Of a DNA stretch of 64,000 nt, positions 4,587 to 52,124 are shown piece by piece (the first letter of the stretch is position 1; every line of letters starts with the position of its first letter). This DNA is from Phoronis australis (lineage: Eukaryota; Animalia; Phoronida), in the NCBI GenBank assembly GCA_002633005.1, contig NMRA01000897.1, positions 42,943 through 106,942 on the forward strand. Reading direction: 5' to 3'. The notes under the pieces were generated by a model, which saw nothing but the letters and a program-made list of their open reading frames with translations, was not told the origin of the DNA and did no database searches. Position numbers and translations under genes: made by a program.

Positions 4587-7500
4587 CTAGAAAAAAGAAA
4601 ACCGCACTAATGCCAATTCTTCACTTATTTAGCGTACAAAATGGCCGATAAGTGAAATTCTATTTTTTTAAAGTTCTCCACAAAAATAAACATTAAGAAA
4701 CCATAAGTCTGTTGCTAGCATGGTTTGTACTCTGTTGATTTAATAGAACAACTTTTTGTAATTTTTTCATTTTATGCATTATTAAAGTAATCAGCCTTTT
4801 GCTAAACAGAACAAGAGCAACGCAGAGCGTTGAAATGCGCCCACAATTGACCTATCGCAAGCTCCGCCCCTATGCGAAAAGTCACGTGACACCCGACATT
4901 CGAACGAGATGTCAGAGGCAAATACACTGTCGCTAAACGACGTTCCTGGTGAAATCGATGAGTGTTTTTGCACTATTTGAAAACGCGTCGACAGGGACAA
5001 GAGGCGATGCTTTTCAACAGTGAATCGTACGTTCATGATATGGGAATTTGTAAAGGTGACGATGAAAAAATAAGTGCTCGAGGAGCCAGACAAAATCCGA
5101 AGAACCCCTCGGCCTCGGGGCTACCTTCACCTGCAGGGCTCGACATAACGAGCTGCAGGTCGCATTTGCGACCTGAAATTTGGAAATGCGAGCTGAGATT
5201 TTTGTCAGCTCGTATAAAGTCACAAAATGCGACCTGGAATTTCCAACGAATGCGAGCTGAGTTTTTACACTTCTCAACAGATACCTGGCAAATACAAAGC
5301 AGCTCTTGTTAATCCGACCGTTATTTGGTTGTTGCCAAATACAAGTTCAAAAGAACACTAACAGGCCTCCCGATGACTTGTAAGCAAGTCGCGTGATCAT
5401 GGGATATGCAGAATCAATCTTTGACGCGTTTCATTGGCTAACACTTTCGGCCACTTTTGTAAATTCCCGGATTCGTCGAGGAAAGTTTCGGGCCACTGCT
5501 TACACGTGATAAAACTTCACATAACAACGGTGTTTCTATTAATTCTTAAGTGATCAACTTACCAAACTTTGTGGTGGACAAAAATGCTTATTTTTCGCAT
5601 AAGANNNNNNNNNNNNNNNNNNNNNNNNNNNNNNNNNNNNNNNNNNNNNNNNNNNNNNNNNNNNNNNNNNNNNNNNNNNNNNNNNNNNNNNNNNNNNNNN
5701 NNNNNNNNNNNNNNNNNNNNNNNNNNNNNNNNNNNNNNNNNNNNNNNNNNNNNNNNNNNNNNNNNNNNNNNNNNNNNNNNNNNNNNNNNNNNNNNNNNNN
5801 NNNNNNNNNNNNNNNNNNNNNNNNNNNNNNNNNNNNNNNNNNNNNNNNNNNNNNNNNNNNNNNNNNNNNNNNNNNNNNNNNNNNNNNNNNNNNNNNNNNN
5901 NNNNNNNNNNNNNNNNNNNNNNNNNNNNNNNNNNNNNNNNNNNNNNNNNNNNNNNNNNNNNNNNNNNNNNNNNNNNNNNNNNNNNNNNNNNNNNNNNNNN
6001 NNNNNNNNNNNNNNNNNNNNNNNNNNNNNNNNNNNNNNNNNNNNNNNNNNNNNNNNNNNNNNNNNNNNNNNNNNNNNNNNNNNNNNNNNNNNNNNNNNNN
6101 NNNNNNNNNNNNNNNNNNNNNNNNNNNNNNNNNNNNNNNNNNNNNNNNNNNNNNNNNNNNNNNNNNNNNNNNNNNNNNNNNNNNNNNNNNNNNNNNNNNN
6201 NNNNNNNNNNNNNNNNNNNNNNNNNNNNNNNNNNNNNNNNNNNNNNNNNNNNNNNNNNNNNGGGGGGGGGGCGCTTATTATAACCCAGGGCGGTTGAAAC
6301 CCGGTCTCCGAAACAGGTGAAATCGGAAGCTAAGATTCATCAAATTTACGCTGTGTGACGTATATGTAATCTATGAAAGACTTTCAACAAAACTGTGGTG
6401 CATTGCTACCAAACTTTACTACTAAATTACGATCATGTTACAGAAAATTGTGCTGAAATCCCAGGGCGAAAACTCGCCGACTGACTGCCTCGAAATCGCC
6501 GTCTTCGATATGGTTACTTCAATGCTTGAATAAAAATTTTTTCGGCTCAAGCAAATTACCTAAAATCCTTATTAAGTTTTATAAGTAGCGTCTCCAAGAT
6601 TTTTTAAGTTCCCGTGGAGTCTGGATTAACGGCAGGTTTAAGTACAAATCTGTGCAACATCGTGCCATCTACATGTATGATCGGCAACACGGCGAGAAAA
6701 ATGTCTAGACGAACACACATGTTGTTGTCACGTGACGTTTGCTTTGAAGTTCGTCTGCGAGTAAGCGAGCGCGTGCGTGTCACCTGAGTTCATTTGCCAA
6801 AGCAAAGCCACGCAATCTAAGTAGCTAGATGTGTCTAAAGAAATTTGCACAAGCAGTAGGCTTAAACCAGAGTGTGTTTCATTCAGCACTTGCCAGTTGC
6901 GTGCTAAAAACTTTCAACATTTGTCTCGGTAAGGCCCATATTAGTCGCCGTGTAGCTGGAAGCGTACGTAACTATCTGACAGTCATTTTTCGGTGTAAGG
7001 GTGTGTAAGCATTCACTGTCAGTTGTCATTTTATCGGATATTCGGCTTAAAAACACCAATTATGGTTAATCAAACAATCTATCTCAAAAATAACGCAAAC
7101 ATGTTTCACCCCGGCCAACCCGCGATCGAGAACGAAATTTGGCGCGAGAAGCGAAGCCAGAAAATGTAAGTAAATTTGATGAATTTTTGGTTGTTTTGAG
7201 TTTCAATACGAAAACAGAGACATGAGTTCAAGGCGTAACACATTGAGGAAGGACAGGTAGAAGTTTAGACTTGTGTCTCGTCCAAATATTGGAGAAAAGT
7301 TACTTTAACCGATGAATCGCTTGAGCCGAAGTAGGCAATGACCATCGCCTCTGTTGGCCCGAACCAGAGGCGATGCAGAGGCTATAGGCGCTCTGTACGC
7401 CGGTTCTACATCAATATATTAATCATGAGGAAATGACGTATGAAAATGTAACCCAACGCTTGTTTTCCGTAGCATTGTCAGGATCTTTGATTTATGAACC

Positions 7501-7730
7501 TTTTTCTGTTAAAAGAAGCGATCGAGAACGCATTGATAAGCGATCGGGAACGCACATTTGAGTTCGCTAAAGCGATCGGGAAGGCACTGCGGTGTGTTGA
7601 ACAATAGTGAACTTTTCAGTAATAAAGAGTTTTAAAAGTTACAAAACAAGTGTGGTTCAATGAATTAATGATATTTTGCATCATTACTGTGTTGCTTTTT
7701 TGTTTAAAACTAAATTTCATAGCATAGCAT

Positions 7731-8032
7731 CCCATACCAAAAAGGCCTCCTGCAAACACTTGCGGCAAGCTTGCTGCAAAAGTTTCTGCAAATCAGCCAC
7801 AAACACATGGAATGATCTCTAGCCAGAAAGTTGTAGTAAGTTTCCTGCAACCCAGCCGCAAACATTGCAGCAAACTTGCTGCATGTTTGCCGCTAGCATG
7901 CAGCAAACTTTCACCATGCAAATGAAGTTTGCAGCAAGCTTGCAGCAAACATCTCCATGTCCTTATTTGGAACAGTTCCTGCAAGGCAGCTGCACACATT
8001 GCTGCAAGCTTGCTGCAAACATCTTCATGGGG
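7731..8032. repeat. MITE-like insertion built from repeated palindromic gcagcaagcttgc(t/a)gc motifs
   Basis: Many copies of gcaagcttgc/gcagcaaac in both orientations between cccat... and ...atgggg. Confidence 0.5.
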
Positions 8033-9036
8033 TTATATAGAAGTTTCTGCGAACCACCTGAAAAAATATTGCTGAAAGACTACAAAATACTTGAATTATG
8101 GTATGAATAATTTAATAAAAAATGTCCTTGGCTAATACATTATTTTTATTGTATGCCCACTTGTTAAAACAAGAAAATACAGAATCAGCTGCATACTCGA
8201 TTTAACATGATAGTTTTCAATCTTTTAATGTATGTCGACTAGAAATGAAATCAACATCACATGACAAGGAATAACAGAAACTACAAAAGTGTCTACAGTG
8301 GCAGTTAGTAATAATACTTGTATTACAATCAAAATTGTGTCTAAAGAGAACAACTAGAATGTATGCAAGCCTTAATTACAATATGCCAATATGTTTTATG
8401 CTTAACGCACGACAAAAATCTATGGTAATTGTAACTAATCAAAACTAACAACAGCAACACAGAGTGTTGAAATGTGCCCACGGCTGTGCCGCCTACGGGG
8501 TGTTAATCAGCATTGAAAATGGCAAAAAAATGTCGAATGCCAATAAAAAAACCCCATGAAATCAGATTTCCTCTCAGTGAAAATAAGGCATACTTAGCAC
8601 AACATGTCGAGCATATTAAAGTATTTTATTTTAAATTACCTCATTACTGGTCAACTAAAAAGAATCACTCTTAGCAAGTTGTATGTTGAAATTTGCAATA
8701 TTTCGACTAGGGATATCATCCAACAGCAACATTCATTTAGCTAAGGCATCAAACATAAATTAAACCTTTCCATTCTACAATATTTCTTAGGTGTTGAAAA
8801 GAACAATTACAGAGGTTGTCCAGTTATAGTCATACTAGTAGACGTTCTAAACACATTCTACTCCAGACTAATCTGTATTGCAGCAATCAGTGGTGTTGCA
8901 TAGGGATCGTGGGATGATCGCTCCACTTTTCTTCCTTAGCATATATTTCCATAAAATCACCATGAGCACTACATGTACAGCAAGCGTTATATTTTAGTTA
9001 TGGATATTTTCACAAATTATTTTATTTTTATTTCAG

Positions 9037-12000
9037 GAAACAATTTCATTGTTATTATTGCCCGGCAAGCTTCAACGACCATGAAAAAATCATTGCCCAC
9101 GCTGTGGCGGTGCCTTTTAGATGAAACTACTGGGAAAATGGGACTCTAAACTAAGACGCATCCAGGAGTTATTCCACGAGACGTATCAGCTGGGGGAAAA
9201 CAAATTGTTGCGACTGATGAAAGTGAGTGCCGAATATTTTTACAAAACTGCGACAACAAAAGAAAAAAAAACCGAACACGCCAGTGAAGTCAAGCAATGA
9301 TAGTGAGTTTGCCAAAGAAAATCTGAAAACAGATGAGACTCCCAGTAATGAAGAATTAGAGTTTGACAAGATGTGCTTCTTGCTTCCCCAAGTCATAGAG
9401 ATAATGAAAGAAAATGGTCTCATGGAATCTTACGTGAAACTGATTGCACTTCTTGCCTCAGGTAGACTGCCTTTGAACAACATATGTTTCCTACTATTCC
9501 TGGATAGTCGAGTGGTTTTCGGTGGAAAATACTTCCAAAATGCGTTACCAAAACCCACAAACTCTTCGGTTCTGGGAAATTGGCTACCAGCTATTTCATT
9601 GAAAGTTCATCAGATTTATGTCTGGACAACGAAATACAGGTCAGATTTTAGACCAGTCAACAGCAAGGGGAGAGTATAGCTCAGGTCAATTCAAAGTGAA
9701 CTTTGCAGTGCCATCTCTGACTACAATACAACATAACCTTTCTAAAAGGAGTCCGTTTTTTCCAGGAATAAAAAGGCAGACAATTGAAAATATAGCCCAC
9801 ACTTATGAAAGCTCTCCTGTAATTTTAGCTGTGGATGGAAAAAAAAATAAGTCGCGGAAAGGGCAAACGCATGGAGGATATTGACCTGTGGGGTTTTGAA
9901 CCAAAGCCAACTCTTCAGGAAAGATTGAACCAAGTTGAAAGAGAAGTGGAATTCGTGAATGAGCTAACAAAAGAAACGGATAGACTAATGACCTATAGTG
10001 TTCAGACCATTAGTGCAATACCCTCAACGTCACGTGAAAAAATTCATTCCGGACTCGTTGAATTGATTAAGTTCATAGGATATCGTAATAAAACAATGAG
10101 AGGCACTGAACAGACGCTAATTCGCTCTGAAGAGAAGTTCAAGCGACTCGGCGGAGATGACTGGATGAAATCCAAGTATTTCCCGGTCATCTCTTTAATG
10201 AGGACAAAACGCAGTGAAATTCGTGCCCACCTAAAAGGTCTTCAGCTGTCAGACGAGATCACAAAATTGGGAATTGACCTAAATGGGAAATCAAACCTTC
10301 ATTCCGAGAAGTTAGTTAAGCTTGCAGAACAACAGAACTTTTATTCACTGAACCCAAACTTCAATAAGTCGACTGATCCACGTTATATGCAACAAAGAAC
10401 CCCGGAGTGGTTTTCTTTGCGCAGCGAAGCGAAAGTTACTGGAAGTACAGCCAATTGTGCACTCGGCTTAGAGACCTTAAAAAGACAAAAAGAACATTTT
10501 CACCAAGTAATTCATGGCATAGAAAAACCTCGTCACAGTGCACTTAACACTCAGAGAATGCTTTATTTAACTGAACACGAACTGGATGCAGTTGCAACAA
10601 TGACATCTAAAGTATTGCCGTTTCTGTTTCCAGAACTGAGCTATTATGAAGAAGGTTGCCAAACAATACCTCACGGCGACAAAGCAGCATTCATGGTAGT
10701 GAGTTCGGATGGCAGTCTCAGGACAAATGATAATGCAGAACCAATAATGATGTATGAAAACAAGTGCAAAGCACCCCAGTCCTATAATCCTAACGCATAC
10801 TACAAGATTCCTAAATATTACGCTGTACAGTTACTCTCTGAGATGTTTGCTTACAGATGTGACAAATTACTCTTTACGTGCTGGTCAGAGACGTCACTTA
10901 CTGCTTTCATGGTTAATTTCGACCATCATCTATGGGGAATGTGCTCGGAGGAAATGACAGAAGTGTATGGCAGTCCAAATCCAAAGCTACTTACTAAGTT
11001 CAGACCTAGTCGAAAGCTCATCCAAGAACAAATCGCTGCATTTATGGAGAATATCATCCACTTTCTCGGTGAGTTTATGTCGTGTGTTGCTGTGAGATCA
11101 CCATCGTCAGACGTCCAAAGTGATGACGCTTATATATCGCCACAGAGTTCAAATGACGCCAAGCCAATTTCTACAGCTCGAGAGTTACAGAACTGCCTTG
11201 TGTCGACGAAAAACTGGATTAATCGGGCTCATCAGTTGTCTAGGACAACTGCATCCGAGATTCTGGTCTACATGGTGAACGGTTTAGACCGGACTTACCA
11301 TGCCGAAATAAATGTTGCTTATCCTATAGCGTATGCAATGAAGGGAACAAGCATGAATAATGCCACCTTTAGAAGTATGATGAATCAAGTTATCTCTGAA
11401 TGTGAAGCAAGGGGGTCTAAACGTGCCGGCCACGTCTAGTGATGGACAATGGCATAAGTAAGGAGTTCGCGGTGATGACAACGAACCACTGACTGTCTTG
11501 CAATTACAGAAAGATCACTGGTCAAGTGTGATGTCACAAGATAAGAAGACGATTATGTCCCAAATAAAATCTAAAGCAAGTGTAAAGAGTTTTCCTGAAG
11601 ATGTCCAAAAAGAGTACAATGTCAATGGTTCCGTGACTGTCTGGCACAAGAAAGATTCATCGATGACTGGGTATCTAAACACAGACCACTCAAAATCCCA
11701 GAGAAATGCAATCATTGATGCTACTTGCCAGAACAGATATGATGGGACTGAATCTCAGCTGTTATCTGTAAAAGAAACATGTCTCGCACTTTTTGAGGAT
11801 GAACACTTTGAAAACACTTCTCTCGAAACTCTAAATGCTGTTGAAAATATAATTGAAAGCTCAGTAACAAATAACGTGCAGAATTTGCATGAGTTCCTTG
11901 GACAGGACTATTTTGTCGAACCATGGTTGTTCCAAGAAGAACCAGGTGCTACACACAAAGTTTTGGCGCAACATCTGACGTGCTCTTTGGGGCTTTTGAG

Positions 12001-14438
12001 GCCATGTACATTAATGGCCATGACGACTTCTATGTGCAAACTGTGATCGATATGAGTGTTGATAAAATACCTTTGAGAAGAGATGGTGACCGTATGGAAT
12101 TGGACGAAGAAAATCTCAACTACACAGTATATGCCAATGATGACAACACATGTGTGGACACAGAACATGTACTTGAAAGTAAGGAGAATGGAAATGCGGA
12201 GCTGTTAGTTTCCGAGAATCGTTACGCTGTGGACACTGCAACGTCTGAATCCATGCTGAATGCTTTAAAAGCAAATGAAATGGCTGAAAACTATCATAAA
12301 TGGTCACAAAAAACTGTTGAAGACTTCAAAAGACTTTTTGCATGTAAGACCACTTGCAATAAGGCACTCCACAAGTTTGAACTCCAGATATGTCTACAAG
12401 TGTTACGTGTGCAGCACGGTGTTTGTTTTGACATTAAACCCTCAAAGAAGGAGCTAGTTCAGTTGTTCACGTCTACATTGAACTTTGGGGTAAATCCCCC
12501 TAATAGGAAGTATCATCAGCGCAATCGAAGTGTTTGCTCACTTAGAAAAATGTGTTGTTCTGTTTTAGAACGTGCATCAAAACAAGAGCTTGCTAAGATT
12601 CTCGCAGAAAACACATGGGATAAAGCTTTACAACAGTGGATTGAATCTGGACCATTGTACCACACTTCGTGTTTTCTTGATAATGAAAAGAGTATGAAGA
12701 ATTGGTTTTCTCGTCCAAGTACTGACCATTACGGCAAGAACAGGTTCCACTTCACCGACGCCTGTCACATTTTGACTTGTATTAGGACAAAACTCTGTAC
12801 TACTGGAATTGCTGGTTTAAAGCGAAAAGCATGGGAAGATGTTGCTCTATCTCGCAAAACCCATCTCAATATTGCTGTGATTGAGGATTGCGTTGACAAG
12901 CAAGATGTAGCTTTAGCAAGACGTGTATTTTCCAGGGATGTTCAAGAAAATATGCTTGACGAATATGTCAACGAGAAAGAATTTTGTGAGTTAATACGAA
13001 ACTGGTTTGATGCCGAGGACGAGCCTGCCATACCTGCTGCTGAAAGATGCATCCGAAGGCTTCGACTTAGAAAATGGCTTTTAGAAGAATTTGCAGTGAA
13101 CACGTTTCCGCCACAAACCCGATATATCAGAGGCATACCGATACAGACTTTCGAGGCATTGTTGGTGCACTTGGAAAGGAAAATGCAAATTTTCCCTTGC
13201 TGCAGAAATCAAACATATAATGTTCGTATAATAGGTTCTCAGCAGGTGGAAAACTTCTTTTCAACATTTCGAGATATGGACTCCACTGGACAAGGGACAC
13301 CAAAACCAGACTCCATTCCTCATATGATGACAGCAGTTGCAGATTTAGACTACTGCAGAATTGACCCCAGCAGGAAAGCAAGATTTAGAATCAAGCTTGT
13401 TTCCTACACATGATTAACTGTAAATTACGCGGACATATCAACTCTCATGTTTGATATTTTACAAAAGTGTTATTTTTCAGTTAAAATTTTGAAGATGTGG
13501 CAACAAAACGCTCCCTGAATAAAAAATGAAAAAATGTTTCACATACCTATCCTCTGAGCTGTGACGGGAAAAAAGTTTTGAGGGCGATGTAAGTGTAAAT
13601 TTATTTTCACACAAGGGCTCGTATGTATAATCAAAATAGGAACTAGTTGAACTGTAAGAAATTATATTAATTTAACAACTAGCTTGTCAGGTTTTGTAAG
13701 AGGTGACACTAAGAATTTGAATTGTTTCAAATGCATTCACGTTTACATGTTTAATCTTCTATAAAACCCCCTACTTGGTTTCAGATCATTCTATATGTCA
13801 ACCACACGAGCCGGAGTGTATCCAATGAGACAGTTTGAGTCCGGTGAAACCCAAGAATGTTTTCACGGCCAAACGCAAGGCATTCATTCTGCATTAGTTT
13901 TTAGTCTGATAACTCCAAGGTTAGTGTTATGTGATACACGTTAACTGTAATTGTTATCTTATATACATTACTTTTTTCTGTAGTCAAATTTCTCTTTTTT
14001 CGTCTTCATCTATTCGTTATCATAATGTCGCGTATTAGTGCTGATAAAGGTACGTAAAGCACCATTGTTTTAAAAAATATTCAAATCGTGGCATTGTCAA
14101 ATAAGCAAGGTCTTCATGAGCGCCGGGTCAAAAATACCCTTCAATAAATAAACGTCCAAGCGCTTATGCGTCATATTACGGTATTTCCACTACTTTGAAA
14201 ACAGTGGCAAGTGTAATGCAGCTCACAGGCTAGCGTCGAAAGCTTTAAAGGAGGATTGATTACTCATTAAATTTTGAGACCTCATAAGGTCGTAACCCTT
14301 CGGAAAGGAGGGAAAGTGTCGTTGCCAAGCGAGTCCGCCCATAGTGAGAAAGGAGTGTGACAACACCATTCGCGAGATGACTCGAAGATACCTGCTCATA
14401 AACGACTCGGATTTCAAAATTTATCAGAAGTTGTGTAG
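9037..14438 (+). pseudogene. Decayed spliced P-element/THAP9-like DDE transposase with an internal YqaJ (lambda exonuclease-like) domain and an N-terminal zinc-finger remnant
   Basis: Joins ORFs 9227-9679, 9618-9884, 9835-11439, 11498-12046 and 11923-13413 through frameshifts. Motifs in order: FHCYYCPASFNDHEKIIAH (~9045-9100); ILAVDGKK (D1, 9834); QQRTPEWFSLR..KVTGS, EHE, SSDG, ENKCK, YAVQ (YqaJ, ~10390-10930); ATSSDGQW (D2, 11441); HFTDACHILTCIRT (D(2)H, 12757-12768); DKQDVALARRVFS (~12895); SQQVENFFSTFR (E, 13249). Likely further exons at 13785-13919 and ~14270-14438. Contains in-frame stops and an apparently mutated GA donor at 13374. Confidence 0.8.
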
Positions 14439-15116
14439 CCAAAAGTATTGTGGTGATAAAAGTGTTGGGATTTTGTTTAATGGTTTACTAATAACATCCA
14501 TACAGAGTTGAACAGACTGACTTGCTACATCCTTGAGGCTTGTATGTGTTTTGTGTTCTTGGTCCCGAGTTCACTGTGCTATAATTTCAGTTCATGGGAC
14601 ATTGAAAAAGAGTGAGAGGAGTTGTAATACACATACTATATTGTGATTTTCTCAAAACGTAGTGACAATGTTGTCTTTAAGTCATTTCAAGACACACTAT
14701 AGTAACTACACTGGAAATCAACAATATGAAAGCAAAATTCCGTAATAATAGTAATCTTTTAATCACACATCATCTCAAAATACGTCATAAAAATATATAA
14801 AATATAGCTCTGGGTAATCAACATTACAAAAGAATCATTGAACATTCCCCATGAGGTATTTTTGGAATGCATTGCACTTATTATAGACACATATTTTCTT
14901 TTTAAAATCTTATGGTAATAACAATGGCCAATGGCACTTAGTATGGTCATTTGAATATACCTAAACACTACAAAAATGCACTGGTTCTGTTTAAGATAGA
15001 TAAAATAACACAAATGTAGAAACTTTAGAAAAAGGTTCAAAATACCACATCTGGCAACTACCAACCATAAACTCTTTTAATCAGAATAAAAACTTAAACA
15101 AATTTCACTACTGGAC

Positions 15117-15525
15117 TTAATGAAGCTTCTGTTTTTTGTGCCTACAGAGGGAGGCATAATGCTTGTACGATTTGCCGCATCCACAACAGAAAGCAGTGAC
15201 CTCATGTTGTGACGCCATGTGTCGCTTTAGGCTCACTTTCTCTGTGAAACATTGGTTGCAGGCATGACACTGAATTGTCTTGTCTCCTGAGCACAGTGCT
15301 TCATGTTGTGACTTTTTGTACCTATTGAAAAACTTCTTGCCACATGAAACACATGAAAATGCTTTGTAGTTTGCGTGCTGGCTCATGTGATCTTGAAACT
15401 TTGTTTGTCTCACGAACACTTTCCCACAGTCCGTCACTGGGCAGGTGAACGTCTTGGTTGCAGTCCTGTCACAATGCTTTGATGCCATGTGGTCAAGCAG
15501 TGTTGATTTTTTACTAAACGAAGCT
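15117..15525 (-). CDS. C2H2 zinc-finger array protein inside the transposon (4 complete fingers plus a partial upstream finger); 5' end not resolved
   Basis: CPVTDC..HMSQH, CVSC..HEALC, CHAC..HMASQH and C(C)GCG..HKKQKLH in ORF 15117-15488. Upstream in-frame SFSKKSTLLDHMASKH is the tail of another finger. Confidence 0.8.
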
Positions 15526-17108
15526 CAATAGTTCTTTGTCACAAGCACTAGTTCTCCTTTTTGAAGGTGTAGACGTTAAGAAGCTAAAAGACTTATCTTG
15601 TGGCAGAAGTTCAACTAAAAAATATCAAAAGCATTTCAGTTATACTTGTTAGGTTAAATCTCACAAAAATCATGAAAAACAGTGAAGTATAATAAACAAT
15701 CAACCCACCCGGCGCCTATTTCAGGGTACGTATTAAATGTAAAACTGACACAACACCGTAACTTGAACGAGTATTCAGGCCAATGCATAGAAAAAGAATG
15801 TGCGTTCACGATCGCTTTTTGCGTTCACGATCGCTTTTTTGCGTTCACGATCGCCATATGAAAGTAACGATTTCGTTCTCGATCGCCGTCTCACACAAGG
15901 ACAAGCTTGTATTGGTAAATATCTCGCATTGTTTCACAAAACATAACTTCGAAAGGTGTCACCTGGGGCAATGAAGCTCTAAACGTCACACTTCTTTACT
16001 TTAGAACTCTGGAACTGCTAATAACAAGTAAAACTTGTCGACTTTACGACGCGCAAGGCATTTTATCGGAAGGCATTACTTTCTGGGTCCTTTAGTTGAT
16101 AAAATAAGCAAAACCAAACATCATTTCAGATCGGCAACAAAGGTTAAGCTCTGATGCTTTTCTCTGTGTCGCATTCGTGCCAAAGTAGCCACTGTTTAAG
16201 AAGAAAATGACACTAAGACTCACCAGGTACATCATCGTCGTCTGCCATTTGTGCGGCAAAGTGTCGTTCTCGACCGCTTTCCGGTCGTTCCCGATCGCAG
16301 GTTGGCCGGAGTGTGTTTTATAGTCTTAGAAATTGTCGGAAATTAGCGCCAATATTCATTTCTTATCGATGCTATGCTACCCGTTTCATGAATGGATAGT
16401 TTCCAACTGTCTTTGATGACAGGTTCATGGATGTAGCGCGCGCTTCCTGGCCACGTGCGTTTAACATCGAGTTATTTTTATTCATGAGACAGTCGATGTG
16501 TACTGAAAGGTCAGACCATAGTGGGACGCGGTCGTCGCGAGAGCGTAGCAACGCCGTTGGGTTCTTTTTGAAGCGTTGCGTTACTTTGAAGTGTAAAGTC
16601 ACAAATAAATACAATAGTAGCAGTGCCGCTGGTGGTTTAGAAGACTCGTTTTTTGATAAATTGAAGACGTTACTGTAGCCGAGTTTTAGGACTGTAGGTA
16701 CGTCATTGTTCGCATATGTACACGTTCATGGACTGGGCGCTTATTTCTGCAGTCTGAAAACGCGTGGGGGGCGCTTATAGGGGCATGGGCGGTTATTACG
16801 GCGAATACGGTATGTAGTATGTTGTACTTTGCAAGATGGAAAGGCATCTGAAAACAGAGAATTAGCATCACATCATAAACAGATACCTGTATGCCAAATT
16901 TTATGAAAATACGTTGAGGACATTTGAACATACAGAGGTAAACGGAAAAAATAAAATTACCACTAGGTGGCACACCAGAAGTTAGCTCCGTCGGAACATC
17001 ATCGTCATGTGTTGCCAACATCATATAAATACACTTACTAAATTTGGTAAAGATCCTTCGAACGATTTAAAAGATACAACCATAGGCGCAAAAAACTGCC
17101 ACTAGGAG

Positions 17109-19528
17109 CATACATGTCAGAATGTCTAGTTGTACCCAACTAATCCCAACTTATCCTGTCATCACTACTGATGCAAGCCCGTTGCTGACATCATGTTTGT
17201 TATCAAACTGCCCCTGCAGGTGGCGCAGCTATTAGTGGGAATAGTTGAATTTGTTGAAACGCGTGATTGATGTCTCTAACATTGAGCTTGTGGATGACAT
17301 CATGTAAGTTAGCTCCCTGTCCACAGGTGACGCACTGATTAGTAGGAATCGTTGAATTAGTTGAATCCAACTAATCCCAAGTCAGCTCAACCTATCCAGC
17401 ACTGAGCTATTCAATTAATTCAACTAATTGTAGCGCCAGCTAAAGTATAACTGGCAATGTGAGACAGAAAAACCCGAGTCACTGACCTGCCTGCAGGTGG
17501 CGCAACAATAAGTGGGAATAGTTGAATTAGTTGAAATGCATGTTCTGTGTCAAGTTGAGAGCCTTTTGCTGACGTCATGATTGTTATCAGTCTGTTCCTG
17601 TAGGTGGCGCAGCGATAAGTGGGAATACTTGAATTAAGTTGAAATGCCTGATCTGAGTCTGTCAAGTTGTGAGCTTGGTGAGCCTTTTGCTAGCGCCATG
17701 CGCTTTATCTGTCTGCCTGCAGGTGGCATAGCGATTAGTGGGAATAGTTGAATTAGTTGGAATGTGGGTTCTGAGTTTCTCAAGCTGTGAGCCTGTTTCT
17801 GACATAATGTTTGTTATCAGCCTATCCCTGCAGGTGGCGCAGCGATTAGTGGGAATAGTTGAATTAGTTGAAATGTGGGTTCTGCGTTCCTCAAGCTATG
17901 AGCCTGTAGCTGACATAATGTTTGTTATCAGCCTATCCCTGCAGGTGGCGCAGCGATTAGTGGGAATAGTTGAATAAGTTGAAATGCTTGTTCTGTGTCT
18001 CTCACTTTGTGAGCCTGGTGAGCCTTTTGCTGGCGTCATGTACTTTTTCAATCTGCCTGTAGGTGGCGAAGCGATTAGTGGGAATAGTTGAATTAGTTGA
18101 AATGTGTGTTCTGTGTCTCTCAAGTTGTGGGCCTGTTGCTGACGCCATGTTTGGTATCAGGTCTGCCTGCAGGTAACGTAGCGATTAGTGGGAACAGTTG
18201 AATTAGTTGAAATGCGTGCTTGGAGTTGCTAAAATTGTGAGCCTGTTGATGATGTCATGTAAGGCGTTCTCTACCTGCCCACAGGTGGCGCAGCGATTAG
18301 TGGGAATAGTTGAAATGCGTGTTCTATGTCTGTCAAGTTGTGAGCCTTATGATTATGTGATAAACTTTATCTACCTGCTCTACTTGATCTACCTAACTTT
18401 ATCTACTCGTTATTTAGTGGGTCAACCCCGTAGGTGGCGTTACATGTCTGCCTTCAGGTGGCGTAGTGATTAATGGGAATAGTTGAATTAGTTGAAATTC
18501 GTGTTTGGAGTCTCTAAAATTGTGATTCTGATGGTGACGTTATGTAAGTTATCTACCTGCCCACAGGTAGCGCAGCCATTAGTAGAAGTATTTGAATTAG
18601 TTAAAATGCGTTTTCTACTTGATCTACCTGTTTCGTTGAGAGTTTGTATTATTTTAAGTTTGCCAGTTCTGCCCTCTGTTGTTTATTTTATGTTTCAGCT
18701 TGGCTACGCCACATTTATTGTTTTAGTATAACCTATGTCTTAGCCAGGACGAAATTTACAGCTACCCTGAGCTTTTCTCACTTGATTCTTGTAGAGGATG
18801 GATGTGTTTCAGTTACCTGCCAGTTTTTTAGTTGAAATATATGTCACAGCGTTCAAGAAAGTAAGTTTTTTTTGTTGGCTTATTAGTTGTATTGCAGTGT
18901 AGGTAATATTGTAATTTCTGACTTTTCTTATATTTAAAATAGGGGTAATTCTTTGGAAGTGAAGGTTCTCGTTTCAGAAACACGTGTTTTCAGAGGTGTA
19001 GTTTAGATTTCTTTCGACAGTTGGCGCTCTTAGCAGTACGTTTATTTCCGTTCACCGTGTGGCGCTGTGATTTGTTTATTTACATCCGGTTTTTGATTAG
19101 CGGGTTTGTGGCTTTGATATATGAGTTTGAATTGTACTTAGGGTTTTCATGACAGGTTTTGGATATTACTTACTTACTTACGTTGGTTTATTTGCTGTGA
19201 CATGCAGAGATTATTATTTCTTGTATTTATGGTGATTTTTGGTTTGTTTTCAGATTGAACTTCTTCTTCTAGACTTATACTGATGTCTGATGTAAAAATA
19301 AAGTTCCAATTTAAACGCTGCTGCTGTTTATTCACCCTGTGCGTGAGCCACTACCTAACCGTGTTTCTCAAGTCGTGAGTCGGTTGCTGACGTCATATAA
19401 ATTATGTACCAGCCCCCAGATGGCGCGGTTATTAGTACGTATAGTTGAATTAGTTGAAATCGGTTTAGTAGACCTACAGCTTCATATTAATCGATTAGTA
19501 GGTCCCTACCAAAGATTCTGACATGACT
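17109..19528. mobile_element. Non-autonomous TIR element carrying a ~120-bp satellite array, inserted in the HINE
   Basis: Short inverted ends catgtcagaat / attctgacatg. cactaggag is duplicated at 17100-17108 and 19529-19537 (candidate 7-9 bp TSD). Confidence 0.5.
17175..18620 (+). repeat. ~120-bp tandem satellite, about 11-12 diverged units
   Basis: The unit ...cctgcaggtggcgcagcgattagtgggaatagttgaattagttgaaatg...caagttgtgagcct... is repeated. Confidence 0.9.
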
Positions 19529-20239
19529 CACTAGGAGACGCCACAGAAGTCAAAATCGGCGAAAATCATCATCAGCCGTCCACTTCATAGTAAGAACATA
19601 CGTGCCAACTTTCGCAATCATCTCTTGATAAACGAGTGGACACCAAAACAGAATTGAAAACAGTAAAAATTGCCACTAGGTGGTGCAAACTACGTCAAAT
19701 TCATCTGAAAACGGAGAGATAGCGTCATCTCATTAACAGATGCCTTTAAGCTAAATTTTATGAAAATACGTTGAGGACCTTTGAATATAAAGAGGTAAAC
19801 GTAAAAAAAAAATTGCCACTAGGTGACACACCAGTTGTCAGATCTGTCTGAAAGTCGTCGTCCTCTGTTGTTAACATTATATAAAGGCCCTTACTAAATT
19901 TAGTAAAGATCATGCACACGGTTTAGAAGATACCGCCACAGGCGCAAAAAAATGCCACAGTAGTCGAAGTCGTCGGAAAATCATCGTCAGCAGTCGAATT
20001 TATAGTAAGAACATACATGCCAATTTTCACAATCGTCCATTGAGCGGTTTGGTTGATAGAGGGGTGGGCAAAAAAAAAGAGTCGAAAACAGTAAAAATGG
20101 CCACCAGGTGGCGCAAACTACGTCGAATCCATCCGAAAACGGGAGTATGGCTTCATCTTACTAATAGGTGCCTATATACCAAAGTTTCGGAAAATCCCTT
20201 CAAGACTTAGGGACGTCAAAAACAGATTCGAAAACAGTA

Positions 20240-21711
20240 ACAAGAGCAACGCAGAGCGTTGAAATGCGCCCACAATTGCACCGCATACGGTATCCTTCTA
20301 GGGTTGTTTATTGGTACCATAAAGTGGCCAGTAGAGGGCATATATGTAGTATGTTGTACTTTGCAAAATGGAAAGGCATGGTCATTGTCTCCTCAATAGG
20401 CTAGGGGCAAAATGTGAGTAATCTTCATAATACAAGCACATCCTATACACCAGTTGCTTAAAGCACCACAGAAANNNNNNNNNNNNNNNNNNNNNNNNNN
20501 NNNNNNNNNNNNNNNNNNNNNNNNNNNNNNNNNNNNNNNNNNNNNNNNNNNNNNNNNNNNNNNNNNNNNNNNNNNNNNNNNNNNNNNNNNNNNNNNNNNN
20601 NNNNNNNNNNNNNNNNNNNNNNNNNNNNNNNNNNNNNNNNNNNNNNNNNNNNNNNNNNNNNNNNNNNNNNNNNNNNNNNNNNNNNNNNNNNNNNNNNNNN
20701 NNNNNNNNNNNNNNNNNNNNNNNNNNNNNNNNNNNNNNNNNNNNNNNNNNNNNNNNNNNNNNNNNNNNNNNNNNNNNNNNNNNNNNNNNNNNNNNNNNNN
20801 NNNNNNNNNNNNNNNNNNNNNNNNNNNNNNNNNNNNNNNNNNNNNNNNNNNNNNNNNNNNNNNNNNNNNNNNNNNNNNNNNNNNNNNNNNNNNNNNNNNN
20901 NNNNNNNNNNNNNNNNNNNNNNNNNNNNNNNNNNNNNNNNNNNNNNNNNNNNNNNNNNNNNNNNNNNNNNNNNNNNNNNNNNNNNNNNNNNNNNNNNNNN
21001 NNNNNNNNNNNNNNNNNNNNNNNNNNNNNNNNNNNNNNNNNNNNNNNNNNNNNNNNNNNNNNNNNNNNNNNNNNNNNNNNNNNNNNNNNNNNNNNNNNNN
21101 NNNNNNNNNNNNNNNNNNNNNNNNNNNNNNNNNNNNNNNNNNNNNNNNNNNNNNNNNNNNNNNNNNNNNNNNNNNNNNNNNNNNNNNNNNNNNNNNNNNN
21201 NNNNNNNNNNNNNNNNNNNNNNNNNNNNNNNNNNNNNNNNNNNNNNNNNNNNNNNNNNNNNNNNNNNNNNNNNNNNNNNNNNNNNNNNNNNNNNNNNNNN
21301 NNNNNNNNNNNNNNNNNNNNNNNNNNNNNNNNNNNNNNNNNNNNNNNNNNNNNNNNNNNNNNNNNNNNNNNNNNNNNNNNNNNNNNNNNNNNNNNNNNNN
21401 NNNNNNNNNNNNNNNNNNNNNNNNNNNNNNNNNNNNNNCAGGACTTTTGAAGATACAAAGGTAAGCGTAAAAAACTAAAATTGCCACTAGGGGGCACACC
21501 GGTAGTCGGATCCGTCCGAAAGTTCGCACATGCCGTCCCATTCATGAATGGAACATATGTGCCAAATTTCATGAACGTATGTCAAAGGGTTTTGGAGATA
21601 GAGCAGCGGACGCCGGACGCCAGACGCCGGACGCCGGACGGACGCCGCCCGTACGGACGGACGGACGGAGATGACGGCATAATGCGTCCACATATAAATA
21701 TGTGGGCGCAT
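20240..21711 (+). mobile_element. HINE copy nested in an A-run of the outer HINE (spans a gap)
   Basis: Same 5' end acaagagcaacgcagagcgttgaaatgcgcccac; 3' end has (ggac)n, hairpin ccacatataaatatgtgg and gcgcat. Removing it restores the outer copy's aaaacagtaa(a)aatggccactagg core. Confidence 0.7.
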
Positions 21712-23198
21712 AAAAATGGCCACTAGGTGGTGCAAACTAGGTAGAATCCATCTGAAAACGGACAGCGTCATCTCATTAACAGATGCCTGTATGCTAAATT
21801 TTATGAAAATACGTTGAGGACCTTTGAATATACAGAGGTAAACGTAAAAAACTAAAATTGCCACTAGGGGGCACACCGGTAGTCGGATCCGTCCGAAAGT
21901 TCGCTCATGCCGTCCCATCCACGGAAGAAACACATGTGCAAAATTTCATGACCATACATGTAGGTCAAGGCGTTTTGGAGATAGAGCAGCGGACGCCGGA
22001 CGGACGAAGATGACGGTATAATACGTCCACATGTAAATATGTGGGCGCATAAAAATGACCAAATATGGCAATTATTTTTGTGCAAAATAAGTGGAGAGTT
22101 ATCATACACAACCTCAAACACTAGCTACGCATTTGCACAGGTGCATCACAGAGAGTTTACTAGCTACACTCTTCGCGCAAATGCTGTCACTAGAATGAGC
22201 AATAGAAAATTGACACCAATTTCATGCATTGCAAGAATTCGAGCACACAGTTACTACCTTAAGTGGAGTACAAGAAATAGTCATGTTTCGATATGGCCAC
22301 GAAATTATGAGTTATACCTCGTTGCCGCATGGCAATGGAGAAGTCGGTGGACAGCAGTCTGCAGTACTGTCTCATATGGGGATTTGGGGATTTAATGTAG
22401 AGGGGTTTCCCAGTGTTGTTTAAAGATTCTTTGTGACCATCATGCTACCAAATTGTCACTGTCGTTTGATGGGATATTCAAACGATTCACTCAAAAACTG
22501 CAACATCTCAAAATGTTCAAATAAGAGAATTTGCATTTCTGACTCAGTCAACTCCAGAATTAGAAATTGAGACAAGCAAATGATGTTTTCGTCCTTTCAC
22601 AGTACTAAAGGGTTATGTTCCAATTAGAACAAATGTAAAAATTTATTCATGATGATCTTTTCTGTGCCTTACTTTCTTGAAGGTAATACCACTTTGATGA
22701 TCATAAGTCAACATTCAATCATACCACAAAACAAGCATAACAAAAACAGACATATGTGTAGTCTAACACAATCAGAAATAAATAGACTGGGGAGACAGCA
22801 TTTGCATCAAATTTGGTTTAAACACAATAAATCTTTCAAATGGACATTCTTAGCGCGAACAGTCATTTTACAGAAATTAACACTAGAAGAGTGGAATAGA
22901 ACCCACTACCTCCATAGTAGCAACTGAATGCTCTGGGGCTGAGCCTAGTCCCACCTGTTTTAAATAGCAATGAAAGTAGTTTTTAAACTTAAAAGTGTAT
23001 TTAAATTGTAAGGACACAGGCCTTGATTTCAGGGAATGTCTGGCACACAACGATGAGAACTGGCAATTTGTGATAAAATCACAAAAACAGATTTTATTGT
23101 TGCTCCAGTCAAAGTTTATAAATTCAAAAAGTCTATCTCATCCAACAACAATTCCCAATGCTTTTATTTTCAGCTGGAAAATAGATAATATCCCTTTA

Positions 23199-24477
23199 AC
23201 AAGAGCAACGCAGAGCGTTGAAATGCGCCCACGCATGCATCGCAAATGGTGCGCTTTTAAGGTAATTTATTTGTATCATAAAAATGGCCACTATATGGCG
23301 CAAAAACGTACAATCCATCCAACAACGGGGAAAATGCCATATTTCATAAAAATCTGTCAAGGAACTTCAGAGTAACAAAGGAAAACAGAACAAAGTGAAA
23401 TTGCCACTTCTGGGCACAGCGTCCATTCCATCCGCCAAAATTCCCACTAGGGGGCACACCAGTAGTCAGATCCGTACGAAAGTTGTCGTCGTCCATTGTC
23501 AACATCATGTAAATACACTTGCTAAATTAAGTAAAGATCCTACAGTTTAATAGATACAGCCATGAGCATAAGAACAAAACTGCCACTAGGAGGTGCCACA
23601 GTAGTTGAACTCGTCGGAAAATCGTCATCAGCCGTCCACTTCATAGTGAAAACATACATGCAAATTTTCACAATTATCCCGAAAGCGGTTTGGTTGATAA
23701 AGTGGACGCGAAAAAACAGATTCGAAAACAGTAAAAATGGCCCCTAGGTGGCACAAACTAGGTCGAATCCATCTGAAAACGAAGAGATAGCTTTAACTCA
23801 TTAACAGATGCCTGTATGCCAAATTTTATGAAAATACGTTGAGAACCTTTGAACATACAGAGGTAAACGTAAAAAAAATCAAATTGCCACAAGGTGGCAC
23901 ACCAGTAGTCAGATCCATCTGAAAGTCGTGGTCCACCGTTGTTAAGATCATACAAATACACTTACTAAATTAAGTAAAGATCCTGCGAACGGTTTAGGGG
24001 ATACAGCTGTCCACGCAAAAAAAAAAACAAAACTACCACTAGGAGGCGCCACAGAAATAAAGTCGTCGCAAAATCATCGTTAGCCGTCCACTTCATAGTA
24101 GGAACATACACGCCAATTTTCACAATCATCCTTTGAGCGGTGTGGTTGAGAGGGGTGGTCGCAAAAACGGACTCAAAAACAGTACAAATGGCCACTAGGT
24201 GGCGCAAACTACGTCAAATCCATCTGAAAACAAGTGGATAGCGTCATCTCACTAATATGTGCCTATATACCAAATTTTATGAAAATCCGTTCAGGACTTT
24301 TGAACTAGGAGGCATACCGGTAATCGGATCCGTCCGAAAGTTCGCTCATGCCATCCCATTCACGGAAGGAACACAATTTCATGAACACATCGATGTCAAG
24401 GTGTTTTGAAGATAGAGCCGCGGACGCCGGACGGAGATGACGGCATAACGCGTCCACATATAAATATGTGGGCCCAT
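23199..24477 (+). mobile_element. Complete HINE copy
   Basis: Same 5' terminus, ~140-bp core tandem units, ggac repeats, 3' hairpin and gtgggcccat+A-run end. Confidence 0.8.
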
Positions 24478-27686: not shown

Positions 27687-28657
27687 TACTGTACTCAGAC
27701 AAAATGACCTGTAATGGTTGTCATGACAGCTGGGCAGAAGCCGAATTCATTGTCACATTTTGATTTCAAATTCATGTTCAAATGATACATTTCGAATATG
27801 TGTGCACGCTAAAGTTGTCCTAGATATACAAAGGGACTCCATTCCTTCATAACTCATCCTAGTTCAATCCGTAGTACACCACATTGAATCCTGCAGGTAG
27901 ACAAATGACATAGAGAACAAACCGCAACTAAAAACAATCATCCACATTTTAAATAAAATGGAACCCAGAACTGGCTTATGGAAGTACCTGTTACATTTTG
28001 GAGCAACAAAATCCATTGGATAATAGAAGAACTTGTACCTTCTTGCTGGCCACAGAAAGATTCTACAGTACATTATCTATCAACTCAAATCTTCTGTTTT
28101 ATTATCAACATTCTTAACACTAACACAGCACATAGTAACATCCTACAGACATGTACACGTTATATGGTGCTCAACACAAAATGACAAGCACTGTAAATTT
28201 TAACTACGCCTTACCTTAGTTTTAACAACCTGTACAAATCTTCCTTTACCTCTGCATAGTAATCTGAAAATTTCATTAAATGTGAAGATTCATAATGGCC
28301 AGGTTTCCTCACAAAACCAAAACTCAATCTATAATGAGCCCATCAATCAGTTTATACACAGAAGGGGTGAAGATTAGTGCCATTGTCAAGACATTTCCTG
28401 ATTGCATTTTGCTAGGCACAGAGGGGATGCTTACAAGACCCCACATTCAAAACTTTAGTCCAAGTTTCTTAATAGGCTAGGTGCAGATTTGTTTTCCAAA
28501 AAATTACAGTAACTGCTGTGGTAGTCTTAACTTACCAAAAAGCATTTGACAGAATTCTAATTTTTACTATAAAAGCGAGTATTTAGCCCCCATGTTTTGA
28601 AAGCAAAAATTTCGCTCAAGTCAGGGTTTCACAAGCACATAACCATAACACTTTTAG

Positions 28658-28948
28658 TTTTTATGTGAATGTCTTAAACTACCAACTATTGAAAGAGCAT
28701 TTTATGTGAATGTCTTAAACTACCAACTATTGAAAGTGTATTTTATGTGAATGTCTTAAACTACCAACTATTGAAAGTGCATTTTATGTGAATGTCTTAA
28801 ACTACCAACTATTGAAAGTGTATTTTATGTGAATGTCTTAAACTACCAACAATTGAAAGTGTATTTTATGTGAATGTCTTAAACTACCAACTATTGAAAG
28901 TGTATTTTATGTGAATGTCTTAAACTACCAACAATTGAAAGTGTATTT
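28658..28948. repeat. 42-bp minisatellite, about 7 copies
   Basis: ttttatgtgaatgtcttaaactaccaactattgaaagtgta is repeated. Confidence 0.95.
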
Positions 28949-29877
28949 TTGTCCAACCTCAGGGTTTTATTTGTAGAACTTGCATTAAGTATTTAGTCCC
29001 TATTACAAACATCACTTGAATTTAAACTTTGAATTTCGAAGTTGAACTTAACAAAGACACAAGTTCACATCAGAAACAGAACAAAAATATTGAACACAAT
29101 AAAACAGCTCAACAAAACAAAAAAAGAACAGAGAGCACAGTCGTCCATGCAAGAAAGGTTTGATTGTTCATAACTCACTGCGGTCTCTGAATAGCTTATG
29201 TGTCTTCAAGCCACCAAATAAATCAGCGGCTATTTGAGACATCGGAAGATACTAAAACAATGTGCTAGATATAAAAATGACAAACTAATTGCTTTTAACA
29301 TGTAATTAAGCGGCGCAGGTAAAACAAGGGTCCTACTCGCTGAACCAGATACATTTCATTAACGTGGTCATGTGGGTTCAGCCTAAAAATGCCCTTAGGC
29401 TGATGAATTGCTGTTCACTGTTAATCTATTCAGAAACTAATAAGAGCAATACAAGACTGTTGATATACTGCGTGTAGCACAGATGACGATGCAAAAGACA
29501 GACATTTTCATAAGAGGAAGCCACTAAAGAACACCTAAAATCGGCTCTAAGGTCAAAGTTCAGTTATTCTAAGGTCACAGGCTCAGTTATTCCAAGTCAG
29601 AGAAGTCCTCTGGAAACTAAAAACATAGTTTCCAAAGTCTTAGGAACACCAATGATTCAAAAGCAGTTAGAAAGATAAAGATGCACATACAAAATTCGGA
29701 TTTGTCCTAAAATAAGCAAGTGCTGTCTTATCTTCAGTAAACACAGCTGCAAAATTTTACAGAGAATAGTCATTAAAGTGGTTTTGCACAAAGAAGATGG
29801 GGTAAAAATACTACAGATGACAGTAATTTGCACCTACATAAAAAGTGGGGCTTCTCTTGGTTAGCACGACCAGGCGA

Positions 29878-30180
29878 ATATTGAGTTGAACATTGCATAT
29901 TACTGTACAGTTATATTGATTTGAACATTGCATATTACTGTACAGAGTTATATTGTGCTGAACATTGCATATTACTGTACACAGTTATATTGAGTTGAAC
30001 ATTGCATATTACTGTACAGAGTTATATTGTGCTGAACATTGCATACTACTGTACACAGTTATATTGAGTTTAACATTGCATATTACTCTACAGAGTTATA
30101 TTGTGCTGAACATTGCATACTAGTGTACAGTTATATTGAGTAAAACATAGCATATTACTGTACAGAGTTATATTGTGCTT
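29878..30180. repeat. ~36-bp minisatellite, about 8 copies
   Basis: atattg(a/t)g(t/c)tgaacattgcatattactgtaca(ga)gtt is repeated. Confidence 0.9.
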
Positions 30181-48452: not shown

Positions 48453-49029
48453 AATGGCGTAGTTGGCAAACGGATGATCTACGGATAAAAAACTGCCAAC
48501 TAGAACCCGCGGACCTCAGATGGCGCGCAAGGTTATGGCGATGGTAAAAATTCAGAGTCGAGGACCTGCAGAGAGGCAACCTTGTGTTCACCTGTGCTAT
48601 GGTGGTAAAGGTACCAAGGAAAGTTGATGACCTGTATGTGAGACAACCTGGTGTCCACTTTCCTGGTGGCGCTCCAATGGGGCTATTCGGAAAATTTACA
48701 TTAACTAGAGGGCATGCGTGTACTAGTGATGATAGATTAAGCAGCCTCGCTTTTGTGAGCCCTTTAAATACATGGTGAAATGGCTTGCAGTGTTGCCAAC
48801 TGAATCTGAGATTGCGTGAAAAAGGTGCAAGTAAGCATGACTTTATACAAAGGAAAGGTTTGTGATTATTTTAACAATTATTAGATGTTTATTCTACTGA
48901 TGCCTGTTAACTGAGGTACTCGCCGATGTCGACTTCGCGGCAGTTGCCAGTTGGGTTAACCTTTGTTGTGATGTGTGTTATGCTACTTGACGTAGCACTC
49001 GGGATCTTTCAGACATCAACACTTATATG

Positions 49030-49530
49030 AAACACATCAACACCCTGAGAAACCGCCTAGTCCACCCCAAAGATCCCACCCCACTTGATCGCCAATGTTG
49101 TGTTATGTATTGACTGTCATGCACTAAGACCTGTCTCATACTTACATCGGCGAGACCAAGCGATCCCTGGGCACCAGAATCAAGGAACACTATAAACCGG
49201 ACAACCCCACAGGCGAGGGGGAACATCTCGGAATCCCCGGCCACACTGCAAGTGGCAAACATGCCAAGATACTGGCCAAAGAGGAAAACTGGTTTTCTAG
49301 AAAGATCAAAGAGTCAATATACATAAAAACTAACAAGCCTACCATATACCGTGACCAAGGTTTGCAACTCCAGTCGATCTATGACGCTATACTACTTTCG
49401 GAAAACAGAAGGACCGGAAACCAGGACGCCCCCCCCTACTAGTCGTTGACAAAGAACTGTGGAGTACAGTTCGAAACGTTTGAACTTCTAATCCCCAGTC
49501 TCCGAGTAATTTGATTTCACTTATAAACCA
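49030..49530 (+). mobile_element. Penelope-like retroelement 3' fragment (GIY-YIG endonuclease, decayed)
   Basis: NTLRNRLVHPKDPTP...YIGETKRSLGTRIKEH...ILAKEENWFSRKIKESIYIK..KPTIYRDQG, with stops and frameshifts. Confidence 0.85.
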
Positions 49531-49773
49531 GCAAGATCTTCCCATCCAGTGCGGATCTGTTGTCAAAGCCTACTTTCTATATCGGAGACAACGAACAAAG
49601 CTCTTGAAAAGGAACATCTATTTTTAAAGAAAGATATTTGTTAATTTACTTATTCAGGTCCTTAGCGGGGGGATTGGCATAGGGGTTTGGAGTTGTAAAA
49701 TTTGGTGCAACTGAATGTGTGGAAATAACAGGTAATAGTGTCTGGGGAAAGAGCATGGTGAGGTAATTCTTAA

Positions 49774-51415: not shown

Positions 51416-52124
51416 TTAACCTTCATGAAGTTCCTTCAATTTTATGTCATGAAACTGTTTTGCTATCAATTGTAAACCCATAAAATATATATTACATTTT
51501 CTGAAACCTCAGTGAATTGAAATGTTGCAAGTCGTTTATAAATTCAGATGGCTGCCATTTCTTGTGAAAATTGCATTTTTGATGCTGCTATACGATTTGT
51601 TATTACTCTTAAACAACAGAAAGATTATCCATCATTTTTAAATGACCCAAGTCTTCACATCTATTAAATGAAAAATAAAAAGTCTGAGAAACGGTTCCCT
51701 TAGCCTTAGACAAGAAGTATGCTTGTCAAGACTCATGAATCTGTAATAGGAGTTTAAAATTGCAGAACGTATCAAAAATAAAAGGGCTTGAAAATGGGTA
51801 ACAAAGGTTTGAAGTTGTCTCAAATAACTTGCATATTTTGCAGACAAGTGATGTGTTTAAAGAATTGTTATGGCTACGAACGAAAAATAAAGACGAAAAT
51901 TTATACAATACTTATTATATACACCCTTGCTTTCTGAAAATAGTAATTATTTAATTTTGTGTGAAACTGTAGAGCAGTCACCATATCACATTTTTGAAAA
52001 ATGGGTAGCATTTTTGACCCAACCTGGAGTAGTTAATTATTCATATTTCATTCAGGTTCAGTGACATTTTAAGGCCACTTAAAGCTGTAACATAAGCAAG
52101 CCTTGTTACTCCTTTCTCTTCTCA

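Follow-up and report, generated by a model that had tools for sequence, protein, structure and literature searches.

Why should a transposase carry a lambda-type exonuclease between the first two of its own catalytic aspartates? The question is raised by a locus in the 64,000-nucleotide stretch of Phoronis australis DNA analysed here (the window), where an earlier note, working from the letters, had placed the motifs of a YqaJ/lambda-exonuclease domain between D1 and D2 of a P-like transposase. The architecture itself, a P-type DDE transposase with YqaJ inside its catalytic core on a single chain, is almost certainly real. What the nuclease does there is a more tentative matter. Perhaps the locus represents a widespread invertebrate lineage ranking apart from P, whose one-chain protein uses the DDE site to cut and paste and the lambda-type arm to process the cut ends and control repair; this reading as a whole has a little less than an even chance of being right.

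The gene lies within a transposon spanning window positions 7107–16313, 9,207 bp bounded by inverted ends. The left terminal inverted repeat (TIR; 7107..7135, plus strand, 29 bp) starts with CAC and is 90% complementary to the right one (16285..16313, minus strand), which terminates in GTG. About 400 bp inward of either end lies a sub-terminal inverted repeat, the left copy (7512..7558, plus strand, 47 bp, containing GCGATCG) matching the right (15797..15840, minus strand) at 85%, and the combination of short TIRs with sub-terminal repeats is a trait of the P superfamily. Identical copies of TGTTT flank the element (7102..7106 and 16314..16318), an apparent target-site duplication (TSD) of 5 bp. 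When flank matches of 2 to 11 bp were compared, full identity was found at 5 bp only, at this one locus; the frequency of the 5-mer TGTTT in the window is 0.3%. Because a single locus is concerned, the 5-bp length is provisional. DNA of relatives was sought in metagenome, genome, and viral scans, and none was found.

The copy in the window is dead. Compared by tblastn with intact relatives, its transposase gene is interrupted by stops in frame at 9147, 9600, 11459, and 14358 and, relative to the homologue P0002, changes frame six times. D1 (GAT 9834) and D2 (GAT 11441) are separated by 535.7 codons, and the YqaJ motifs all lie in a 536-codon open reading frame (ORF) at 9829-11439. The positions and the spacing of about 535 codons given previously were therefore right, but the three parts do not share a frame in this copy. 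Frame 0 holds D1, frame 1 the YqaJ ORF, and frame 2 D2; the frame changes are located at a run of nine A's (9839-9847) and near a run of five G's (11411-11415).

The transposase gene can nonetheless be followed along the plus strand. A short exon 1 is predicted at 7136..7171; by its sequence it would end at 7165, before a consensus GTAAGT donor at 7166. If that donor were joined to an acceptor at 9036, the splice would supply the rest of a start codon immediately ahead of a CYYC finger, and this predicted start is where homologues begin. The C2H2-like finger (CYYC...H; 9037..9120), which matches residues 3-21 of P0002 and is not a THAP domain, opens predicted exon 2. A THAP-like motif near 8478 was considered as the N-terminus of the transposase and rejected, as it belongs to a dispersed repeat with copies at 4810, 20219, and 23178. 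The copy of that repeat at 8427-8531 (others at 4810, 20219-20323, and 23178-23282), with its THAP-like start motif, lies in predicted intron 1. So does a palindromic, internally repeated stretch (7750-8023), possibly a small foldback insertion.

Downstream of the finger comes a broken pre-catalytic region, helical and equivalent to a helix-turn-helix (9236..9833, traced by tblastn; the matching model residues 1-91 are within the range aligned with P transposase). D1 follows on β-1 (9834..9836), and beyond it are three long stalk helices (9910..10281, limits approximate, mapped from a structural model of the relative P0005), the YqaJ/lambda-exonuclease-like PD-(D/E)XK domain (10363..11080, limits approximate), a return helix that would close the predicted stalk (11176..11247), and RNase H strands β-2 to β-4, ending at D2 (11257..11443). 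A second insert (11450..12730) separates β-4 from β-5 and consists of helices, an acidic linker modelled with low confidence, and a confidently modelled helical domain. The D(2)H motif follows β-5 (12757..12768), after which a helical domain with a conserved D at 12895 forms the shorter counterpart of the GTP-binding insertion of P (12769..13248) and leads to the catalytic E (13249..13251). Two more exons are predicted: exon 3 (13785..13919), resembling the spliced C-termini of P0006, P0025, and P0030, whose preceding donor (13374) is not GT in the window copy, and a broken last exon (14250..14438, 5' limit approximate) corresponding to residues 1649-1686 of P0015.

Convergent with the transposase gene is a frameshifted multi-C2H2 zinc-finger gene (15117..16248, minus strand), whose exon structure is predicted. 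Its fingers at 15117-15524 match Pfam zf-C2H2 (E 6e-13). A predicted ATG at 16248, followed by a GTGAGT donor at 16223 and an acceptor at 15614, would splice in frame to the fingers; from 14440 to 16313 the minus strand has no consensus donor other than 16223, and consensus donors of this kind occur about once per kb over both strands. Between the TIRs there is no gene for a single-strand annealase of the Red/RecET type, and the C2H2 protein is the only other recognised gene.

The motifs of the exonuclease, claimed for 10390..10935, are present as placed: QQRT from 10390, the E of TEHE at 10579, the D of SSDG at 10708, the E and K of E-x-K at 10756 and 10762, and the Q of YYAVQ at 10828. The catalytic D and E-x-K, thought to be retained, are indeed there, and the catalytic codons of the nuclease are still all present in the window copy despite its breakage. 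The window ORF itself is short of the Pfam YqaJ cut-off (E 0.026), but all five longer homologues scanned are above it, and the domain as modelled is that of lambda exonuclease (Z 16.4). Its YqaJ-type identity is thereby borne out. Viral YqaJ matches were also obtained for the domain. A single-sequence fold of the window ORF was unusable (pLDDT 37).

On the transposase side, Pfam PF21787 was matched by its second half only, after YqaJ (about 64-137 in homologues, in 5/5 and 3/14 proteins, mostly below cut-off); its first half went undetected. When 19 short pieces, from the D1 side or the C-terminus, were scanned with Pfam, no P-family model was found, which leaves D1 without Pfam support. PDB sequence searches with P0005, A1, and A5 returned no P transposase, and lambda exonuclease was not significant (3SYY, E 0.67). 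The kinship is therefore visible by structure only.

Intact relatives show whether the arrangement belongs to the family or to a wrecked copy. Homology searches gave 67 distinct proteins. Segment profiles from alignment A3 were run over a larger set of 211 proteins, and in all 64 of these that span the region, YqaJ sits between D1 and D2 within a single ORF, which is what the earlier note proposed to look for; the proteins outside the 64 are fragments that do not reach both D1 and D2. A query consisting only of the C-terminal part of the transposase (12700-13380) gave 575 clusters at E <= 0.001, and among the best 150 of the 575 matches, 32/32 spanning proteins carry YqaJ. A sister lacking YqaJ, with a short D1-D2 interval, was sought as well and is absent from the proteins compared, which include the best 150 of those 575 matches.

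Forty-nine proteins are complete from D1 to E, with identities of 19-60% (median 28%). D1, DxxH (both its D and its H), and E are found in 49/49 and D2 in 48/49, at spacings of 494-587 residues from D1 to D2, 168-562 from D2 to DxxH, and 162-172 from DxxH to E. Seven scored YqaJ residues are complete in 43/49, and both active sites, whose joint conservation was in question, are intact in 42 of the 49 in spite of that median identity. In P0145, D2 is replaced by H and the YqaJ site is intact. The six proteins that have lost nuclease residues (P0104, P0124, P0151, P0155, P0161, and P0174) keep the domain as well as D1, D2, DxxH, and E. In the tree they occupy at least three branches, and P0124, P0151, P0155, and P0161 form one diverged clade. 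Derived changes in common and a shortened helix mark P0124, P0155, and P0161.

Intact relatives encode one protein of 1,200-1,700 residues. Named members come from the bivalves Mercenaria, Dreissena, Mytilus, and Pinctada, the gastropod Batillaria, and the annelid Owenia. In the four clusters compared, out of ten retrieved, full-length copies on different contigs differ at 1-19 residues and occur alongside fragments, as expected for young transposon families. A search of the ESM Atlas with the whole protein gave one cluster of 58 members, 64% of them with YqaJ. THAP matches are absent from the 5 + 14 proteins scanned with Pfam, and a crude N-terminal pattern gives THAP in 0/49 and a C2H2-like finger in 12/49, several of the proteins being truncated at the N-terminus. 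Three members (P0024, P0039, and P0064) are labelled as belonging to a Candidatus Thiodiazotropha symbiont bin and lie on 4-5-kb contigs; these are likely host animal DNA within the bin, not bacterial genes.

How the chain might fold was modelled with AlphaFold2 on 1,189 residues of P0005, from 69 aligned rows, with no templates and with the protein free of DNA (pLDDT 86.3, pTM 0.78). In the model, strand E92-101 carries D1. It is followed by three long helices, which lead to the nuclease (about 275-512), and helix H547-567 returns from it to strands E574-582, E594-602, and E628-634, the last ending in D2. Past the second insert, the chain continues through strand E977-982 and its DxxH, then through a helical domain, to helix H1145-1157, which bears E. 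Foldseek puts P transposase at the top and lambda-type exonucleases next, and a wider structural search repeats the ranking of P transposase. By VIA-align, P transposase (6P5A) gives Z 28.3 with an rmsd of 2.9 Å over 359 residues, model 1-1184 lying on chain 152-566, as against Z 11.6 for Transib and 10.3 for RAG1, both at over 5 Å. Within the model, residues 275-481 align with lambda exonuclease (3SM4, Z 16.4, rmsd 3.0 Å, 185 residues; 3SZ4, Z 15.9). The structure 6P5A was released in 2019, after the training cut-off of AlphaFold2.

The RNase H fold is thus predicted to assemble around the insert, as had been suggested, with YqaJ between β-1 and β-2 on a four-helix stalk that would hold it away from the core. 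The stretch of helix or coiled coil said to follow D1 appears in the model as four helices, three long ones ahead of YqaJ and one behind it, which together resemble a four-helix bundle. Bundle matches span model 121-571, and the helices flanking the nuclease are on that account likely to be one stalk, although bundle scores are generic. As for the ILAVDG aspartate, proposed to be the first catalytic D, it is on the expected strand in a core that superposes on P transposase, while its pairing with D230 is presumptive. If free of gaps, the aligned ranges (model 66 = 147 in Hermes, model 87 = 116 in foamy-virus integrase) would place D1 at 179 and 127, respectively, adjacent to 180 and 128, the first catalytic aspartates of those enzymes. 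Within the second insert, the helical domain (P0005 about 870-1010) has pLDDT over 90, behind the acidic linker, and is conserved across the family; an ESM Atlas lookup with this domain gave no usable match.

The family resembles P transposase, THAP9, and Galileo by far the most closely in fold, and the catalytic residues are laid out as in P, with D on β-1, D after β-4, D(2)H after β-5, and E on a helix past a helical insertion (for P: β-1, β-4, and the helix that follows the insertion domain, as described in PMC8230255). Also as in P, TIRs of about 30 bp are accompanied by sub-terminal inverted repeats. The spacings differ. Drosophila P has 73 residues from D1 to D2 (in line with the previous assertion that canonical P enzymes have fewer than 100), 36 from D2 to DxxH, and 192 from DxxH to E (PMC8230255), whereas here stalk and YqaJ bring the first interval to 494-587 and the second is 168-562. 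Unlike P, the family lacks a THAP match, has a C2H2-like finger in some members, and is accompanied by a convergent zinc-finger gene. The apparent 5-bp duplication at one locus compares with 8 bp for P (PMC7776569) and 7-8 bp for Galileo (PMC4168063). The GTP-binding residues of P are D528, K385, K400, V401, S409, F443, D444, and N447; the likely equivalent of D444 is D or E in 49/49 proteins, in a domain that is shorter than that of P. P enzymes also cleave with a 17-nt stagger and depend on GTP. A shorter GTP-domain equivalent and the apparent 5-bp duplication together suggest that ends are handled unlike those of P. The family is filed here as an unnamed P-related lineage, one that works like P but has neither THAP nor the 7-8-bp TSD (one locus) and has two large inserts in its core.

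Membership in Transib/RAG was considered and rejected. Transib and RAG-like elements share with this one the CAC termini, the 5-bp duplication (one locus), and two convergent genes (PMC7204232), but the fold match is poor (Z 9-12, rmsd over 5 Å, far from the P value) and the second gene encodes a C2H2 protein, not a RAG2-like one. The available text of PMC7204232 reports no nuclease insert.

The insert has the fold of lambda exonuclease and YqaJ (PF09588; 1AVQ, 3SM4, 3SYY) and the same E, PD, E-x-K, and Q residues, but it is no free enzyme, being embedded in a transposase through both of its ends, and its element is without an annealase gene. Lambda exonuclease and YqaJ act processively in the 5'-3' direction as ring-shaped trimers.

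Other transposons carry such nucleases. ISL2EU, of the PHIS superfamily, is a DDE transposon with a YqaJ exonuclease, but there YqaJ is on a second ORF, the transposase is of the THAP-HTH-DDE type, the termini are GG, and the target is AT (PMC4482050; the separate ORF also in PMC4122938 and PMC9179366). KolobokE (Kolobok superfamily) encodes a lambda-exonuclease-like nuclease with its DDD/E transposase, but downstream from its transposase domain, with termini RR...YY, in contrast to the present D1–D2 location and CA...TG ends; its insertion after D1 is a small CCHC finger, as described in PMC9587614. No description of a P-type core with an internal YqaJ was found in full-text searches of the literature, though Repbase, subscription journals, and supplements may list some as P.

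What, then, might the nuclease do? Since its residues are conserved, it is probably active in most members, and for intact members activity can be assumed with good confidence. It is also likely to be accessory, useful but non-essential, because nuclease residues are gone from six relatives in which DDE persists. The association of YqaJ with unrelated transposases (ISL2EU, KolobokE) suggests a job independent of end chemistry. Lambda exonuclease converts double-strand ends to long 3' overhangs (PMC3424549), and donor breaks left by P are repaired through homologous recombination or end joining (PMC7776569). Together with a non-essential nuclease, these considerations lead to the proposal that the nuclease resects the donor flank. 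The DDE site most probably excises and integrates the element, and the exonuclease would chew back the 5' strands where the donor chromosome is broken. The resected ends would then enter homologous recombination with the sister or homologue, which would restore the element at the donor site, for a net gain of a copy. If the nuclease is active, whether its substrate is the donor flank and not the element end is an even call; that resection of the donor site tilts repair to recombination and so re-copies the element is slightly more doubtful than that. Several considerations weigh against the proposal. Instead of being self-mobile, the six proteins with a degenerate nuclease could be non-autonomous or have been kept by their hosts. 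A 5'-3' exonuclease could equally well make 3' overhangs of 17 nt like those of P. Also, core and nuclease trees (FastTree, 49 proteins) are congruent only in part, with 21/46 splits in common, a distance correlation of 0.61, supported splits recovered in 18/30 and 16/22 cases, and 10 conflicting supported pairs.

The main rival of donor resection, unlikely but deserving attention, is that the exonuclease trims the non-transferred 5' strands of the element itself to leave 3' extensions, replacing or following a second cut by DDE. P elements need 3' extensions of 17 nt, and the mechanism of that cleavage is stated to be unknown (PMC7776569). The idea is also favored by the fusion of the nuclease within the catalytic core, by the 45-53 residues from DxxH to the conserved D (105 in P) and by the apparent 5-bp duplication. 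If trimming were obligatory, however, it would fit poorly with the 6/49 relatives, four of which make up a single long-lived clade, whose nuclease residues are lost and whose DDE is kept, and canonical P overhangs arise without a YqaJ-type domain. Or perhaps YqaJ mainly binds or caps ends or scaffolds the transpososome, with catalysis of minor importance or used to clear excised or mis-joined intermediates. The domain does stay where its catalytic residues are lost, and no spanning relative is without it, but binding would not require seven nuclease residues to be kept in 43/49 proteins that are so diverged, and this role is less likely again. It is improbable that the domain acts like TnsA of Tn7, as an endonuclease cutting the second strand at the element end: TnsA is a PD-(D/E)XK transposition nuclease (PMC3424549) and one chain here holds two nuclease sites, but the best fold matches are lambda and LHK exonucleases (Z 15-16), and a cut that is obligatory agrees poorly with the existence of the degenerate relatives. 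That a nested insertion by chance, or a host gene of no transposase design, accounts for the arrangement, as a heavily broken copy of an element examined at one copy might suggest, is very improbable and already largely refuted by the 64/64 spanning proteins that share it in one ORF, by the inverted ends and target duplication that bracket the gene, and by the near-identical multi-copy clusters.

Donor resection is the working proposal, and the arrangement matters beyond it. Insertion domains of transposases usually lie between β-5 and the last helix (PMC8230255), but in this family the first two strands are parted by about 470 residues, among them a second enzyme, and yet the fold is predicted to close. 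YqaJ nucleases accompany several transposon superfamilies, in a role stated to be unknown (PMC4482050). With transposase and YqaJ on one chain, and with nuclease-dead relatives provided by nature as controls, that role becomes directly open to tests by point mutants. The one-chain arrangement could also illuminate the origin of the long 3' overhangs of P-type enzymes, and an enzyme in which cutting and resection are tethered is of interest as a way to direct repair to recombination. Because databases label the proteins only as YqaJ or hypothetical, hundreds of clusters have been missed as transposons.

Repeats of other kinds surround the element in the window. To its right, 16788-24397 contains several copies of a dispersed repeat family of 100-190 nt. 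Tandem arrays are found at 17176-18621, 28618-28990, 29872-30167, and 1133-1312, with periods of about 111, 41, 37, and 26 nt, respectively. Farther along, nested long inverted repeats occupy 48676-56721, in which an approximately 4-kb foldback, its centre near 54336, is accompanied by outer inverted-repeat arms at 48676-49009 and 56363-56721.
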